DNA of 64,000 nucleotides, from NCBI GenBank assembly GCA_009695205.1, contig SIBK01000010.1, positions 9,670 to 73,669 on the forward strand. Reading direction: 5' to 3'. The notes beneath the pieces are model-generated. The model ran no database searches. It was not told where the DNA came from and worked only from the letters and a program-made list of their open reading frames with translations. The stretch comes from Pedosphaera sp. (GTDB lineage Bacteria > Verrucomicrobiota > Verrucomicrobiia > Limisphaerales > UBA9464). Numbering within the stretch: position 1 is the first letter of the stretch; each line of letters begins with the position of its first letter. Positions 4,928-52,455 of the stretch are shown piece after piece. A program made the translations under genes and the position numbers.

Positions 4928-5752
4928 ATGCGACATTCTGCGGCAACCTCGGCACGTCCGGTCTGCATCCGGCAAACAAGGGCGGGCTTTACCCTGATCG
5001 AATTACTCGTCGTAATTGCGATCATCGCCATATTGGCGGGGCTACTCCTGCCAGCGTTGAGTCGGGCCAAGGGCAAGGCTCTGGGAATTAATTGCGCCGC
5101 GAATTGCAAGCAACTGCAGACCGCCCTGCAGCTCTATACGGACGAACACTCGGACCGTTACGTCAATAATCATGGCGTCGGCCAGACGCGCGCTGAAACA
5201 AATACATGGGCCAACAACATCATTGATTGGAATGACAGTCCCGGGAATACCAACCTCACTCTGCTCACCGCCGCGAAATTTGCCGCGTTCCTCGGAAAAA
5301 CACCGGGCGTGTTCAAGTGTCCCGCGGATCGTTCTCGGGCGGACAATGGACCTAGGATCCGAAGCTATTCCCTGAATTCCTTGGTGGGTGATCCAGGCGA
5401 ATTAACCAACCGGTTCAATCCCTCCTTCACCCAGTTATTCAAAGGAGCCGATGTCCCCGACCCTTCTGGTATTTTTGCCTTTCTCGACGAACATCCTGAC
5501 ACCATCAATGACGGGTTCTTCATGAACCACCTCGACGAGGAGCCCAAATGGGGCAATCTGCCCGCCTCGTACCACAACGGCTCTGGCAACTTCAGCTTCC
5601 TCGACGGCCACGTGGAATCCAAACGATGGGTCGTCACCGGTCCCGATGGCACAGTCCGCCCGAATATCAAGGGCGGGGCCGGAGGTATTTTTCCTGCAAA
5701 ACCCACCACCGATTGGGATTGGGTGAAAGAGCGCACGAGCCGGCGACGTTGA
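4928..5752 (+). CDS. prepilin-type N-terminal cleavage/methylation domain protein (H-X9-DG / DUF1559-like)
   Basis: ORF 4832..5752 trimmed to ATG 4928. Has [25 protein letters not shown] pilin-like leader and helix, and the C-terminal [13 protein letters not shown]9-DG-type motif. Confidence 0.8.
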
Positions 5753-5851
5753 CCACGAGCGAGCGGGCCAATGTCTTCGGCAACAACGCTGCCGGAGTTT
5801 ACGGCGTGACCAATTTGGACCAGGCGACGAAGTCGAACGAGGATCCGCCGG

Positions 5852-6895
5852 CTACTTGCCGCCAAGCAGGTGCTCGATGACCAATTGGTCGAGATCCTGA
5901 TAGTTGCGATCCGCGATCAGTTGTTCGGCTTGCTTTTCGGGATAGCTGCGCGCTTTTTCGAGGAGCCGGAGGAACGTGTCGCGAGAATTGGATAAATGCG
6001 CGCTCCAATGCTCCTGCTGTGTGGTTCGGAACGGATGCACGTCGAAGCACACGTATTCGCCCTTCTGCCCATACCCATTTCGTTCCAACGCCCGAACCTG
6101 GTTAAATGCGACTCGTAGATTATTGCTCCCGAAGGGCTTGTCCTGATCAAACTTCAACCCGTTCTGGTCATTCAGATGCAACGACCAAAGCTTCCCAAAC
6201 GCCATCGCAAAGTCGATCTCATCCGCTGGATCTAATCCCGCCAGGATCGCATGCGCCGACTCGATCAGACACCCGACCCGTTTCGAATCCCGGGTAAGCT
6301 GCGCCACCGCCAAGGCATGGCCAATGGTCGGCAGATACGCGACGTCCATCGGCTCATTCGGTTTGGGTTCAATTGCAAGTCGGATTTTCTTGTCGTGCGC
6401 CAGCATCGCATCCAACGCCGCCACCAAAAGATCCACACAACGCCGGCCATTCTTCGACTCGCGGATATAGGTCCCTTCCCGCGCGAGCCAAAGCACCATG
6501 AGATCGGTCCCCAGCGCATTCGCGATGTCGATCGTCCGGCGGGATCGGTCAATCGCATATTGACGGCTTTTGGGGTCATTTGAGGTAAAGGCTCCATCGA
6601 CCGTATTCGGGTGAAACCAAAGCCGCGGGGCAACCATCTCGGCCGTGATGCCCTCGCCATCGAGGCGTTTCTTCAATTCCTTCGCCTCTTTCAACACCTG
6701 TGCTCCGCTCTTGGCATCGATCTCCGGCACCGCATCATCGTCATGAAACATCATCGCCTCAAAGCCAATCTTTTTGAGCTCAGTAAGCTTACGGTCGAAG
6801 GAAATCTCGGTCCGAGTCGGCGGTCCATAGGGATCCTGTCCAGCACTCCAATTCCAGGGACCGGTACAAAAGCGGTAGATATTTGATTTGGCCAT
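5852..6895 (-). CDS. xylose isomerase-like TIM-barrel sugar isomerase
   Basis: ORF trimmed to ATG 6895 (MAKSNIYRFCTGPWNW..DPYGPPTR). The N-terminus and the LNDQNGLKFDQDKPFG segment resemble class I xylose isomerase (FTFGLWTVGW..DPFG; DLNGQ.G.KYDQDLRFG). Confidence 0.65.
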   Translation of the reverse strand: MAKSNIYRFCTGPWNWSAGQDPYGPPTRTEISFDRKLTELKKIGFEAMMFHDDDAVPEIDAKSGAQVLKEAKELKKRLDGEGITAEMVAPRLWFHPNTVDGAFTSNDPKSRQYAIDRSRRTIDIANALGTDLMVLWLAREGTYIRESKNGRRCVDLLVAALDAMLAHDKKIRLAIEPKPNEPMDVAYLPTIGHALAVAQLTRDSKRVGCLIESAHAILAGLDPADEIDFAMAFGKLWSLHLNDQNGLKFDQDKPFGSNNLRVAFNQVRALERNGYGQKGEYVCFDVHPFRTTQQEHWSAHLSNSRDTFLRLLEKARSYPEKQAEQLIADRNYQDLDQLVIEHLLGGK

Positions 6896-7164
6896 GATGA
6901 TGTCGGCCGTAAAGGTAGAAATCTCAGAGCGAGTCGCGAGAAAAATCGGCTGTCGATCACCGATTGGTGGCATTTCGTACAAAGAGCGATCTCATTCGAA
7001 CAAGCGCCCAGATGGAATCCTGGAACCATTCCGACCGTTCCGTACCACGCACCGAACTCTCTCGCCTCCAGCCTCCAACCGAAATTCAGTGAGCAGTCTG
7101 CGAACTACGGCATCCGTCTTCCCCTCGCTCGACAAGCGGGCACCGAGCGATCACCCTCCTGTGA

Positions 7165-49087: not shown

Positions 49088-49200
49088 TCAGAAGTACGAG
49101 GGCATCGATCCCGACAGAAGCCTTGCCCCTTCGGCAATGTTTAGAACGACGCTCTTTGCAGCCCTCCGAAAATGATCACACTCCAGGGCGCTCCGCGCCT
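49088..49200 (-). pseudogene. four-helix-bundle protein (23S rRNA IVS-type) fragment
   Basis: Only the signature RRAAKSVVLNIAEGARL is recognisable (family motif S..NIAEG). Confidence 0.3.
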
Positions 49201-49425
49201 TCAGAGCGCAGGTTTGCCAACAACTTCGGGATGCGCCCCCGTCTCGACAGGCCGCGAATTGTGTGCTTGCGATTGTCCAAAACTTTGGTGTACGTGTACC
49301 GCCGCAAGCCTGAACTTGCCCCGGTTTTGTTGCTTGCCGTTGCAATGCGTTTCACAAGGCAACACTGTCGAAAATCTTGTAGCAACTGCCTGGCTGGTTC
49401 TCATAAGTGCTTCACAATCAGTATT

Positions 49426-49468
49426 GCGTGCGTGGCGAAATGGCAGACGCGCCAGACTTAGGATTTGG
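49426..49468 (+). tRNA. tRNA-Leu(UAG)-like 5' half (fragment, not a functional tRNA)
   Basis: GCGTGCG-TG-GCG-AAATGGCAGA-CGC-G-CCAGA-CTTAGGA-TTTGG folds as acceptor 5' strand, class II D-arm and anticodon arm with anticodon TAG. No T-arm (GTTCRA) and no matching acceptor 3' strand follow. Confidence 0.45.
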
Positions 49469-49755
49469 CTTTCGGGGGTTTCAGGGGGTGCCTTTGCGTT
49501 TCAACAAAATCGACCAACCCATTGATTCCATTGGATGAATCCCACGTTAGCTGTATCAATCGCTGGTTTGATAACAATTGCCAATACTGTCGCAATTAGT
49601 GTCGCAATTTTGAAACGGTCAATTCCGAGCGGATATCCCATCACCGCATTGCTTGGCGTCATGGCCGTTGCTTTCCGACGGTCCCCCGGGTATCCGGTAG
49701 CGATGGTCAAAGGACTTGTCCCCTCCGCCCTGTCGAAAGCCCTTGCGCGCCGGCG

Positions 49756-50241
49756 TCAAGGGGCGGCTTTGGCGACGCGCTCCATTCGGAGAAGAGCCCG
49801 GCGAAGGGCCGTGCGCTTTGCTTCGCTTTCTTGGAAGACCATGCCCGCTTGACGGTCAAACCCTGAGGCATCGGCCCCGTCGGCCTTCTGTTTTTCTACC
49901 GATTCGCACAAACCGAGAAATACCGCGTCTAGCCGGGCAATGTCTGCCACCAGCATTCGCGCCAGGAAAACGAGATTCAATATCGGGGTATCGGTCCCGT
50001 CGTTGGCGCGCTGCCTGAACTCGTCACGGATCCGAGAGCAGCGCCGTTTTACTTTTTCTTGCGTGGAAGGGTTCCAGCCGAGCCAGTTAAGTAAATCCTG
50101 GACGTTCTTTGTTGGGCATCCTGAAGAAACCCAGGTCGATGCGGCCTTAGCCCTAACTTCGAACAGGGTAGAAATTTCGTTTGAGCGGAGAAACCCATCG
50201 GCAGACGTGGTGTCTGGTTTTGTCATTTTAGGGGTTTTCAT
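49756..50241 (-). CDS. phage-like HTH DNA-binding protein (Nu1/terminase-small-like)
   Basis: 161-aa ORF. The segment FLRSNEISTLFEVRAKAASTWVSSGCP resembles the N-terminal wHTH of small terminase/Nu1-type proteins. Preceded by an AT-rich block. Functional call is tentative. Confidence 0.45.
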   Translation of the reverse strand: MKTPKMTKPDTTSADGFLRSNEISTLFEVRAKAASTWVSSGCPTKNVQDLLNWLGWNPSTQEKVKRRCSRIRDEFRQRANDGTDTPILNLVFLARMLVADIARLDAVFLGLCESVEKQKADGADASGFDRQAGMVFQESEAKRTALRRALLRMERVAKAAP

Positions 50242-50578
50242 TGGTGTTTTGTACTGGTTTGCAAAAAACTTAGTCTGTGATGCTTATTTTGAGATATTGT
50301 GACAAATATTATGAAGTCACCGTTACTCGTTTACTTTTCAGCTAGTAATATATTCCTTATGTTGAAATGAAAACCCCGAAAACTTTTCGGAATGACCCAC
50401 AGGGGGCGGGCGGGGCGGTCCTCACCAGCGCGGGGTGGCGAGGTTTCTGCGGCCGTTTGGTGCATGGACGCCGGGCGGTTTCGCGAGCGCGTGACGGGCA
50501 GCCTGGGGCAGGATCGGCGGCCGAGGCCAAGGTTTGGATTTGGGGAATTGCCGCGTGAGGGTGGGGTCGGTTTCTCTC

Positions 50579-50823
50579 AACGCCCCACGCTCCCTCCCCT
50601 TATAAAGGGTCGGGGCGTTCGGGGCGTAGACACATGAGGACGCAACGCCCCAAGGCCGAAAAGGGCGTAGTCGGGGCGTAGGGGCGTTGATGCAGTATCC
50701 CCCTTGTTTGCAAGGGTTTTGTAACGCCCCACCTTCTTTTGGGAGCGGGGGCGTTGATGTCGGGAAAGTGACCCCAAAAACAACGCCCCGATGCCATCTC
50801 TGAATCCGAGGTGACTGGGGCGT
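50579..50823. repeat. cluster of 11 short iteron-like repeats GGGGCGT(T/A)
   Basis: Forward copies at 50612, 50621, 50663 (GGGCGT), 50673, 50681, 50748 and 50817. Reverse copies (AACGCCCC) at 50579, 50644, 50723 and 50782. GGGGCGTTGATG occurs twice (50681, 50748). Confidence 0.7.
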
Positions 50824-51458
50824 CATTTCTCGAGCCTCCGCTCTCCGGAAAGATCCTTTACGATCACAACCGCGGCCTCCATTTTCTCCATACGTTTTCG
50901 TGAACCGCTTTTACTCTTCATGCGCAGTTGGTCTTTCAGCCGGTCGATGAATTCACCCCACGGTAGGGACTCTCGTTTCGAATAAAGGAACACGGATTGC
51001 GCCTCGCTCAAAAGTTGTGCACGTTGAGCGTCAAATTTCGAGCGTCCGCCCGCGGTGGTGGATACGTGCATCCGGTGTTCATCTGACCACTCGAAGCGGG
51101 TTCCCTTGTCCTTGGGAATTGGTGCGTGGCGGTTTTTGTCGCTCCACACAACGGCAACGTCTTCGTCCTTGTCGAGTCTGAGGTTTGTTTCCGATTTCCG
51201 TTCGAGTTGGCTCCCAAGGTGACCTCTGGTTTTGGGAGTGCCTCCTTTTGCCTGTCCACCGGGATTCAGATGAATGACCAAAACGATGGCGCATTCAAAT
51301 TGGATGGCCAGTGCGTGCAACTCCGCAACGAAAGCGTTTGATTCCGCGGCGTCGTTGACGTCCAGAACCAGGTCAGCGATGCCGTCGATAAAAACGGAGT
51401 GGACACCACCGAGGTCAGCTTTGGCGGTTTCCAGCAAGAGCGTCAGAAGTAGCCTCAC
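50823..51458 (-). pseudogene. RepA/AAA_25 (P4-type primase-helicase-like) ATPase, N-terminally truncated
   Basis: VFIDGIADLV..ELHALAIQFECAIVLVIHLNP matches the Walker B/sensor region of RecA-fold AAA_25 proteins. No Walker A is present. The upstream part is replaced by the 3' end of the SMP-30-like gene region. Confidence 0.55.
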
Positions 51459-51510
51459 CTCGCTTACAGTAAATCCAGTCAGGCAGTGAGACCGGAACCA
51501 AGGCGGCGGC

Positions 51511-52455
51511 TCAATTCCCGCAGCCTTTGCTGTAGCGCCACCCCCTCAAACCCACCGGCAACTTGAAGACGGCCTCCTTGGCCGCGACCGTCACGTATAG
51601 ATCTCCATTAAAAAAATGCACGTTCGTCGCCAGTTTGCCTCCCGCGTCGTAGGTCGCCAGGATCCTGCCGCTGGGGACCTCAATGACGTGAATGACGCCC
51701 CCGGTCCAGGTGCCGAGATAGAGTCGCCCCGCGTCGTCGAAGACGAATCCGTCGGGGACTTCGTCCTTACCTGGGAGTGTTAGCAGGCCGCGTGGATTCG
51801 ATCCCTTGCCGTCGACCATATCCAGGATCATGAGCTGCTTCGTGTCCGAGTCGGCCGTGATCAGGTGCTTGCCGTCCGGAGTCAGGCCGATGCCATTGGA
51901 GCCAATCGGCTCGGGGTTCAGCTTGTCGACCGTGCCGCCGTCTCTATTCCATCGGTAGACGTTTTTCTGCCCCGGATTCGAGAAGTAGATATTGCCGTGA
52001 GGGTCGAGCGCGACGTCGTTCAGGCCTTTGAGCCGCACGCCGTTCACCTCTCGAACGAGGACCTCCACCTTTTTGCCATCCTTCGAAATTCGGATGACCT
52101 GCGACGTGCCGGTCTCCGCCGCGATGAGGTTCCCATCGTCGTCGATCTTGATGCCGTTGCAGCCCGGCTGGCGGTCGCCTTCGGCGGGCAAGTGCTTTCG
52201 CAAATCGATGAAGATGCTCGCCGAGCCGTCAGGCGTGATCTTGCCGATGGTGCCCCCTTCTCGATAGTTCACCACGTAGAGGTTGCCCTCGCGGTCGATC
52301 GCCGGTCCTTCGGCGAAGGTGAACCCGGTGCAGTAGAGCGAAGGCCGGATCGTGGAAGATTTGGGCAACGCAGCAACCTGTTTTTGAGATTGAGCCGTTC
52401 CTGGCAAAAGCCCGAGAACGAGCAGCGCCGCAAGGGCAAGTGTTGGGGTCCGCAT
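51511..52455 (-). CDS. SMP-30/gluconolactonase/LRE-family beta-propeller protein, secreted
   Basis: Signal peptide. Repeated blades with FAEGPAIDREGNLYVVN, NGIKIDDDGNL, LNDVALDPHGNIYFS, PNGIGLTPDGKHL and PDGFVFDDAGRLYLG. Confidence 0.85.
   Translation of the reverse strand: MRTPTLALAALLVLGLLPGTAQSQKQVAALPKSSTIRPSLYCTGFTFAEGPAIDREGNLYVVNYREGGTIGKITPDGSASIFIDLRKHLPAEGDRQPGCNGIKIDDDGNLIAAETGTSQVIRISKDGKKVEVLVREVNGVRLKGLNDVALDPHGNIYFSNPGQKNVYRWNRDGGTVDKLNPEPIGSNGIGLTPDGKHLITADSDTKQLMILDMVDGKGSNPRGLLTLPGKDEVPDGFVFDDAGRLYLGTWTGGVIHVIEVPSGRILATYDAGGKLATNVHFFNGDLYVTVAAKEAVFKLPVGLRGWRYSKGCGN

Follow-up and report, generated by a model that had tools for sequence, protein, structure and literature searches.

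Introduction

A dense cluster of short GC-rich repeats lies directly behind the stop codon of a broken ATPase gene in this verrucomicrobial genome, and the question is what the cluster was made for. A preliminary description read it as the iterons of a phage- or plasmid-type replication origin tied to a RepA-like gene, with recombinase arm sites or regulator sites as the alternative. The window, which is the whole 64,000-nucleotide stretch that was analysed, corresponds to contig C3:9670–73669 of a 4.95-Mb assembly (142 contigs, 58% G+C, 93% complete), and it was compared with 40 related genomes. The comparison points, with a probability of roughly 0.8, to a replication origin that belonged to a small integrative element of phage descent and was orphaned after the element decayed. 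The repeats would most likely be bound by the DNA-binding tail of the helicase that the island itself encodes.

Results

The repeat array is unique in its genome

The iteron array occupies 50579–50825 on the minus strand (247 bp, by pattern search) and has the consensus (G)GGGCGT(T/A). GGGGCGT(T/A) occurs 12 times in the window, and nine of these copies fall within 50579–50789. Of the 11 copies first reported, nine are exact and lie on the strands given; the other two are near copies, AGGGCGTA at 50662/50663 and GGGGCGTC at 50817. Read in the sense of the ATPase gene (minus strand, hereafter rep), the array consists of seven ACGCCC(C) and four GGGGCGT, plus a degenerate twelfth copy (ACGCTCC at 50587). 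The longer unit GGGGCGTTGATG is indeed present twice, at 50681 and 50748.

Throughout the genome GGGGCGTW has 312 copies (0.063 per kb), and no second group of at least three copies within 100 bp was found anywhere in it. Per 250 bp, GGGCGT is found 11 times at the array versus four times at the runner-up site of the whole genome, and GGGGCGT 10 times versus twice. The array is therefore not an effect of base composition, a possibility for which the preliminary description had proposed a genome-wide motif scan. It had also regarded the open reading frames across the array as artefacts, and this was borne out: searches of Pfam, NCBIfam and PHROGs with these frames were all empty, and alignment of the region with its counterpart in a genome of the same genus (G002) contains gaps of 1, 2, 3, 6 and 12 nt. 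Rfam and tRNA scans of the window gave no match, so there is no sign of an RNA gene. No DnaA box was found within 49500–51600.

The putative origin block and its downstream side

The conserved block (50512–50825, minus strand) begins with the rep stop codon and ends where relatives cease to be homologous. It is 84.4% identical to the corresponding region of an intact element (L032), whereas the rep coding DNA is only 75.8% identical. Homology with G002 fades near 50512, about where that with L032 stops.

A core palindrome at 50579–50628 is formed by two inverted iteron pairs around an AT-rich centre, an arrangement also seen with other iterons in about 30 loci. On the minus strand it reads ACGCCCC-ga-ACGCCCC-ga-CCCTTTATAAGGGG-ag-GGAGCGT-GGGGCGT (50628–50579, ACGCCCCgaACGCCCCgaCCCTTTATAAGGGGagGGAGCGTGGGGCGT), and as single-stranded DNA it has a folding energy of −19.6 kcal/mol (z = −5.96). 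By analogy with known origins, the core is proposed to be the site of melting and loading. Its AT-rich centre measures 7–10 bp, and classical unwinding elements are much longer. A second small inverted repeat with an AT-rich loop (CCCCCTTGTTTGCAAGGGT, 50699–50717) lies within the array and is conserved in both G002 and L032.

Past the block, a terminator-like hairpin with a T run, recognised by consensus match only, lies at 50373–50393 (minus strand) between a GC-rich spacer and an AT-rich block, and is possibly the end of the rep transcript. The AT-rich block (50242–50366) had been counted as part of the origin. It shows no conservation and has no counterpart in relatives, and it is placed outside the conserved origin because homology to relatives already ends near 50512. 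The AT-rich element of the family is instead the small TATA-type palindrome inside the array. From its position, the AT-rich block is most likely the promoter region of the next gene, ORF161 (49756–50241, minus strand), rather than an unwinding element; a sigma-70 scan of 50150–50900 detected no promoter. ORF161 has no match in Pfam, NCBIfam or PHROGs, and in relatives its position is taken by a small HTH gene or a small terminase gene. It is assigned to the element by position only, since tblastn of ORF161 and ORF134 against all fetched loci gave no match.

The adjacent gene is the C-terminal part of a predicted helicase-initiator

On the minus strand, a gluconolactonase-like gene (51511–52455) is followed by the truncated gene, rep' (51512–50826), the array (50825–50579), a GC-rich stretch, the hairpin (50393–50373), the AT-rich block (50366–50242) and ORF161 (50241–49756). 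Beyond ORF161 there are IS fragments (49730–48682) and an IS4 copy (48680–47362).

The neighbour had been described as a truncated RepA-type ATPase, and it corresponds to the C-terminal part of a probable AAA_25-type ATPase, 65–80% identical to intact full-length relatives. The fragment comprises 229 codons (50826–51512, minus strand), equivalent to residues 169–390 of the 390-aa protein of G002. The annotated frame starts at the GTG at 51458 (50823–51458, minus strand), and its stop codon is 50823–50825. Walker B and the downstream motifs are kept, and the first ~168 codons, including Walker A, are gone. Homology begins at residue 169 exactly at 51512, abutting the stop of the gluconolactonase-like gene (junction at 51511–51513), so the Walker A part was deleted and not frameshifted. 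The gluconolactonase-like gene has no similarity to a lactonase gene near the rep of another locus (L030), and therefore the two do not share an insertion site. An in-frame insertion of six codons (AKGGTP, 51234–51251, minus strand) interrupts the otherwise invariant NPG..KTRGHLGS loop and is present in no relative; these 18 nt are read from the alignment as a sign of relaxed constraint after truncation. The gene ends in a predicted C-terminal winged-helix domain (LPWGEF...SGSRKRMEKM...SGERRLEK, 50826–50966, minus strand).

The Pfam AAA_25 score of rep' (18.6 bits) is under the gathering cut-off of 27, as is that of the G002 protein (24.5), and the proteins of three other loci score above it (L005, 40.0; L012, 40.7; L007, 33.5).

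BLAST and profile searches of the 93%-complete assembly detected neither another member of the Rep family nor a second copy of its C-terminal domain. The island has also lost its integrase and primase genes. Since rep lost its Walker A part and the assembly holds no intact copy, the array is an orphan relic. It cannot fire in this genome, although, with 93% of the genome assembled, a small chance of an intact Rep elsewhere is left. The good preservation of the array fits a recent deletion.

Other debris surrounds the fragment. Positions 49240–49468 are 81% identical to another contig of the same genome (C128:1332–1570), which carries the start of a tyrosine integrase gene (C128:1435–179, minus strand) and a tRNA-Leu(tag) at C128:1527–1611. 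The window thus retains a short integrase stub beside the 5' half of a tRNA-Leu, in the divergent arrangement found in the G002 element (L004:5827–7212). If both belonged to a single element, the stub would lie on the wrong side of the rep-origin fragment, which suggests two decayed elements or a rearrangement. Next to it lies a 52-nt sequence (49187–49239) with further copies, 83–92% identical, on over 25 contigs, many of them close to a contig end (C9:286–337 and C129:286–337, for instance); it is probably an IS end or a miniature element that breaks the assembly.

Relatives carry intact elements with the array in the same place

Among the 40 related genomes, a full-length 390-aa homologue, 67% identical to the fragment, was found in G002, and a 469-aa homologue, 41% identical, in another genus of the same family (G013). 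In G002, a tyrosine integrase gene adjoining tRNA-Leu and two ORFs of 380 aa and 240 aa lie ahead of rep; behind it come a region homologous to the array and then a small HTH gene. G013 has an equivalent layout, in which the repeat is TGGGGT/ACCCCA around CCCCCTATATATAGGGGG. The closest intact element, L032, encodes a 361-aa Rep that is 80% identical to the fragment, and all array copies keep their position and orientation there. A slightly more distant element (L031) has AACGTCC in place of AACGCCC. The array of the window is as regular as that of L032 and more regular than that of G002.

The family is large. Scanning species-representative genomes recovered 22 loci, almost all of them from Verrucomicrobiota, and a scan of viral contigs gave 395 relatives. 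At E < 1e-10, over 1,250 homologues came up in a protein search, and their names do not go beyond "hypothetical protein" or "AAA family ATPase". Members are common in freshwater Verrucomicrobiota, among prophages and on small satellite-like islands. The public record of the relative from the same genus (CAMDJH010000047.1, L006/L004) is titled as an Akkermansia muciniphila MAG; this label looks wrong because the genome is ~6.4 Mb and its relatives are freshwater Verrucomicrobiota. In four Prosthecobacter species (L017, L020, L021, L022; ~5200–7000 of the loci) the same tryptophan-halogenase-like chromosomal gene follows the origin with 88–95% DNA identity. All four species thus carry the element at one shared locus, and its inheritance may be vertical.

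The array is not a property of every relative. Relatives on Bacteroidales plasmid records are ~33% identical, are annotated as "bifunctional DNA primase/helicase" and lie among conjugative-transposon-type genes; they have no array, and an HTH gene comes directly next. Arrays were likewise not found in several Bacteroidales-type IMG/VR viral contigs. The origin-after-stop design is thus a trait of a subfamily and not of all AAA_25 primase-helicases.

A seemingly intact island of a different type lies elsewhere in the same genome, outside the window (C109:31080–35700). It has an integrase 46% identical to that of G002, a 258-aa homologue of the G002 380-aa ORF, and a 300-aa ORF that is directly followed by three direct CCATTACCGCC copies and other short repeats. 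This ORF and its repeats may be another initiator-plus-iteron pair.

The layout is constant and the motif changes

In about 30 loci, the homologous gene has the same layout immediately behind its stop codon; these loci come from Verrucomicrobiota genomes, metagenome contigs and a true tailed prophage. Of the 20 genome loci that cover the stop codon, 18 have 5–13 copies of one 6-mer in the next 260 nt, whereas the best 6-mer reaches at most 3–6 copies in other windows of the same loci and at most 4–5 in shuffled sequences. The 6-mer filter excluded one locus (L013), whose two-letter motif ACCCCA has 11 copies. About a dozen viral contigs show the same enrichment after the stop. These results bear out the proposed tie between the repeats and the RepA-like gene, and comparison with P4-like and satellite elements, as suggested at the outset, was apt.

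The order of the parts is constant. Behind the stop codon come two to four direct copies and then a single inverted one, followed by two or three more in direct orientation. Next is a short palindrome that has a TATA-type centre (typically CCTATATATAGG), and two inverted copies complete the layout. The repeats are 6–8-mers in both orientations. About 20 lineage-specific motifs were found, and the TATA-type centre is unchanged among them: ACGCCC, ACGTCC, TGGGGT, GGTTCA, GGCTACA, TTGGCGGT, GGATAC, TTGGCACT, TCAGGGTT, GGGTCA, GGGCCA, GGCTCA, GGATCA, GGTATCA, CGGAGT, AACCCGCA, ACCCCGA, AACAGACA, ACGGTAA and others. Relative to the integrase gene, the array lies upstream in L007 and downstream in L008, and its position after the rep stop never varies. 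No other origin candidate is conserved beside the module in the compared loci.

Two variations of the layout were observed. In one locus (L014, ~4960–5480) the entire origin, iterons and ACCTATATATAGGT core, is present twice, ~330 nt apart, with 19 GGGTCA copies. In Prosthecobacter-type elements, 4–7 tandem copies of a 17-nt unit (GCTGTGAACCTGCTGCR) lie ~200 nt past the origin (L018, ~5290–5400; also L019, L021, L022 and L024).

The repeat follows the C-terminal winged helix

In the Prosthecobacter-type group, the repeat tracks the last ~60 residues of Rep and not the motor. Two proteins with motors 98% identical and C-terminal domains 59% identical (L015 and L018) are followed by GGGTCA and GGTATCA, respectively. 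Likewise, L017 and L021 have motors 97% identical and C-terminal domains 61% identical, with GGGCCA versus GGTATCA. Conversely, L018 and L021, whose motors are 84% identical and whose C-terminal domains are 97% identical, have the same iteron. Variants of the putative recognition helix pair with different repeats; for example, SESTAKRR goes with GGGTCA, AERSAKRR with GGGCCA, SAATAKRR with GGCTCA and SVATAKRR with GGTATCA.

The L017/L021 pair delimits what is exchanged. Their DNA is 89% identical as far as ~130 nt short of the stop, and alignment resumes at 94.5% with the chromosomal gene that lies past the origin; the neighbouring genes and both flanks are 89–95% identical. The only piece that cannot be aligned consists of the last ~43 codons and the origin. 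Judged from these alignments, a cassette of winged helix and repeats has been exchanged alone in natural swaps. Since only the tail and the origin were swapped, the primase, the integrase, the downstream genes and the flanking proteins are excluded as partners of the repeats. The C-terminal winged helix of rep' is thus proposed, from sequence comparison, as the iteron reader.

Rep is predicted to be a DnaB-like helicase of a replication module

A search of PDB sequences with the Rep-family profile gave only insignificant matches, so the fold had to be predicted. AlphaFold2 folds the G002 protein into a core of RecA type, a long helix and a small domain at the C-terminus (mean pLDDT 84). Foldseek matched the motor in the PDB to RadA/Sms, DnaB, Twinkle, T7 gp4, KaiC and Rad51, and on this model the motor is of the RecA-fold, SF4-type ring-helicase class and not AAA+. 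The C-terminal 90 residues encoded in the window, modelled with 20 homologues (pLDDT 81), form a helix-strand-helix-helix-hairpin. Their Foldseek matches were only winged helices (cullin WHB, IclR, DtxR/IdeR, Fur, MarR, Cdt1 and the MCM4 WH), at probabilities of ~0.9 but with weak E-values of 0.05 or higher.

The genetic context is that of replication. One locus (L012) encodes a Prim-Pol fusion, Prosthecobacter loci have a Toprim gene directly upstream, and the N-termini of database homologues are DnaB_N (PF00772), Prim-Pol, PriCT, VirE_N or Toprim/zinc-finger domains. Integrases adjoin the module. In the true tailed prophage (L034), genes for a helicase, RusA, a methylase and a prim-pol::AAA_25::winged-helix protein are followed by 11 copies of AACCCGCA, and past this array come the small and large terminase, portal and protease genes, so that the module sits between the replication genes and the terminase, portal and protease genes. 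Taken with the model, Rep is best described as a predicted RecA-fold, DnaB-like (AAA_25) hexameric helicase that is often fused or adjacent to a primase.

Discussion

Proposed mechanism

The examples of SaPI Rep and P4 alpha suggest a mechanism of initiation for the intact elements. Rep would read the 6–8-bp iterons through its winged helices, and the two inverted iteron pairs would place Rep rings on both sides of the short AT-rich palindrome centre. The centre would then melt, and the helicase would load itself without a separate loader. Finally, a primase would be recruited and would prime, and the host polymerase would copy the excised circle. Self-loading is the weakest step of this scheme, because DnaB-type helicases normally require a loader and we know of no described DnaB-type helicase that binds an origin.

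Alternative roles of the repeats

The repeats may be Rep sites whose main role is not initiation but autoregulation or termination of the rep transcript, control of copy number by handcuffing, partition or incompatibility. The rep transcript would carry the array in its 3' untranslated region, ahead of the terminator-like hairpin, one relative has two full arrays (L014), and P4 has a second, non-origin iteron region, crr. However, an operator would be expected at a promoter and not behind the gene. In addition, an invariant AT-rich palindrome between inverted iteron pairs is the signature of a SaPI-type origin (PMC9371898), and beside the module there is no other conserved candidate to which the origin could be assigned. 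We consider this role unlikely.

It is quite improbable that the repeats serve another protein of the element, as integrase arm sites or attP, as a pac site for the small terminase or as HTH operators. Integrases do lie near the module, and behind the array there is often a small gene for an HTH protein or a terminase. But the natural swap between L017 and L021 changed nothing except the Rep C-terminal codons and the array, the rest being 89–95% identical, and in this pair a chromosomal halogenase gene, not an HTH gene, follows the array. The position of the integrase also varies, in contrast to the constant place of the array after the stop. These cassette swaps disfavour the recombinase-arm or regulator sites that had been offered as the alternative. 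An integrase arm-type array or attP was rejected on two further observations: the repeats co-vary with the Rep C-terminal domain, and in the G002 element the tRNA-Leu side and the far side are not connected by a direct repeat, the two sharing no word of at least 12 nt.

The relic could also still have a function, if the array, perhaps together with a hypothetical, ATPase-dead rep' product that keeps its winged helix, titrated or blocked an incoming Rep and so caused exclusion or incompatibility. All 11 copies and an open frame of 229 codons have survived, and the array is as regular as that of the intact L032 and more so than that of G002. A recent deletion, however, explains this preservation equally well, and the six-codon insertion in an invariant loop and the nearby IS fragments and gene debris point to decay. 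The chance of such a decoy is likewise slight. An accident of GC-rich composition or a stretch of real coding sequence, for which only the listed open frames speak, is practically dismissed by the unique clustering, the frame-breaking gaps, the lack of homologues and a layout that is conserved while its motif changes.

Comparison with known systems

The preferred reading, an orphaned replication origin read by the tail of its own helicase, has its closest parallel in the staphylococcal SaPI islands. The SaPI origin lies immediately 3' of rep, spans ~250–300 bp and contains 6–12 short (5–8 bp) iterons, with an AT-rich centre flanked on each side by at least two oppositely oriented iterons; the C-terminal winged helix of SaPI Rep sets specificity, and no loader is needed (PMC9371898; bioRxiv 10.64898/2026.10.17.759575). 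Similarly, the array of the window starts at the rep stop (50823–50825) and has 11–12 copies in 247 bp, as in about 30 relatives. Its core (50579–50628) has at least two opposed iterons per side, with a centre of 7–10 bp that is shorter than that of SaPIs. By computation only, the iteron here goes with the winged helix at the C-terminus of a predicted ring helicase, the cassette swap is limited to the tail and the origin, a primase is encoded next to or within Rep, and an integrase gene lies close by. The two systems differ in the motor, which in SaPI Rep is AAA+ (SF3 or MCM-like) and here is predicted to be a RecA-fold, DnaB/RadA-like motor. They also differ in their hosts, which here are Verrucomicrobiota and others, and have no sequence relationship. 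Known RecA-fold DnaB/RadA-like motors move with a polarity opposite to that of SaPI-type AAA+ motors. In the SaPI type, Rep binds and melts its own origin, and a helper phage induces replication.

P4 is an integrase-bearing satellite whose alpha protein combines a Toprim primase, an SF3 helicase and a C-terminal DNA-binding domain, and recognises octamer repeats in both orientations. The combination of primase, helicase and C-terminal DNA reader, the short repeats in both orientations and the integrase-bearing element are shared with the present family. P4 needs a second repeat region, crr, ~4.5 kb away; unlike P4, this genome has no second repeat cluster, and the motor is predicted to be RecA-fold and not SF3. 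By analogy, the module would work like SaPI pri-rep-ori or P4 alpha/ori but with a different motor class.

RepA of RSF1010/IncQ is the archetype of AAA_25, the Pfam family for which several relatives score above the cut-off, and it shares the RecA-like hexameric helicase fold predicted for Rep. In IncQ plasmids, RepA has no DNA-reading tail, and a separate protein, RepC, reads three and a half direct iterons of 20 bp. In contrast, the helicase here itself bears a predicted winged helix, and the repeats are 6–8 bp in both orientations.

Classical iteron plasmids have 17–22-bp direct repeats, motor-less initiators with two winged helices and DnaA boxes, and they use host DnaB/DnaC. The present array, unlike theirs, has 7–8-bp repeats in both orientations, a helicase as the putative reader and no DnaA box. 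As in pPS10, RK2, R6K and F (initiators RepA, TrfA and pi), where initiator-specific repeats lie beside an AT-rich element (PMC4980987), the repeated putative initiator sites adjoin an AT-rich element.

The archaeal plasmid pRN1 encodes ORF904, which has an SF3 helicase, and we know of no iteron array of this kind described for it. ORF904 combines a prim-pol, a helicase and a winged helix, and an essential origin sequence lies downstream of the gene (PMC4234260). The prim-pol fusion of L012, with its putative origin downstream of the gene, resembles this arrangement.

Two other candidates were set aside as relatives. Cyanobacterial CyRepA differs in its domains (DUF3854 and DEXDc; PMC10079941). 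In pMEA300, a hairpin that contains 8-bp repeats marks the 3' end of repAM, but this is a parallel of position only, since its protein RepAM is unrelated and its replication is suspected to be of the rolling-circle mode (PMC2440964).

Meaning for the host and the family

In its own genome the locus has modest significance, being a dead remnant amid IS fragments and broken genes. The family is of wider interest. To our knowledge, every self-loading initiator-helicase so far described at an iteron origin has an AAA+ motor, as in SaPI Rep, P4 alpha, SV40 T antigen and pRN1. The full-text literature, of incomplete coverage, returned only SaPI, SCCmec, pRN1 and classical iteron plasmids, and no origin-reading RecA-type helicase was described there. 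The widespread module of helicase, winged helix and origin therefore appears to be undescribed. We propose tentatively, at slightly worse than even odds, that it represents a large undescribed family in which an SF4-type helicase is the initiator, its winged helix reads lineage-specific iterons, the helicase loads itself and the cassette is exchanged as a unit.

If this is true, a third motor class would have converged on the same origin design. A DnaB/RecA-type motor on such an origin raises the question of how two rings of opposite polarity are placed on a palindrome without a loader. The family findings would permit origins to be annotated in many uncultured elements, and the family could yield small replicons for phyla without genetic tools. 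Recognition helices and iterons that vary in pairs would form a data set for a winged-helix recognition code.
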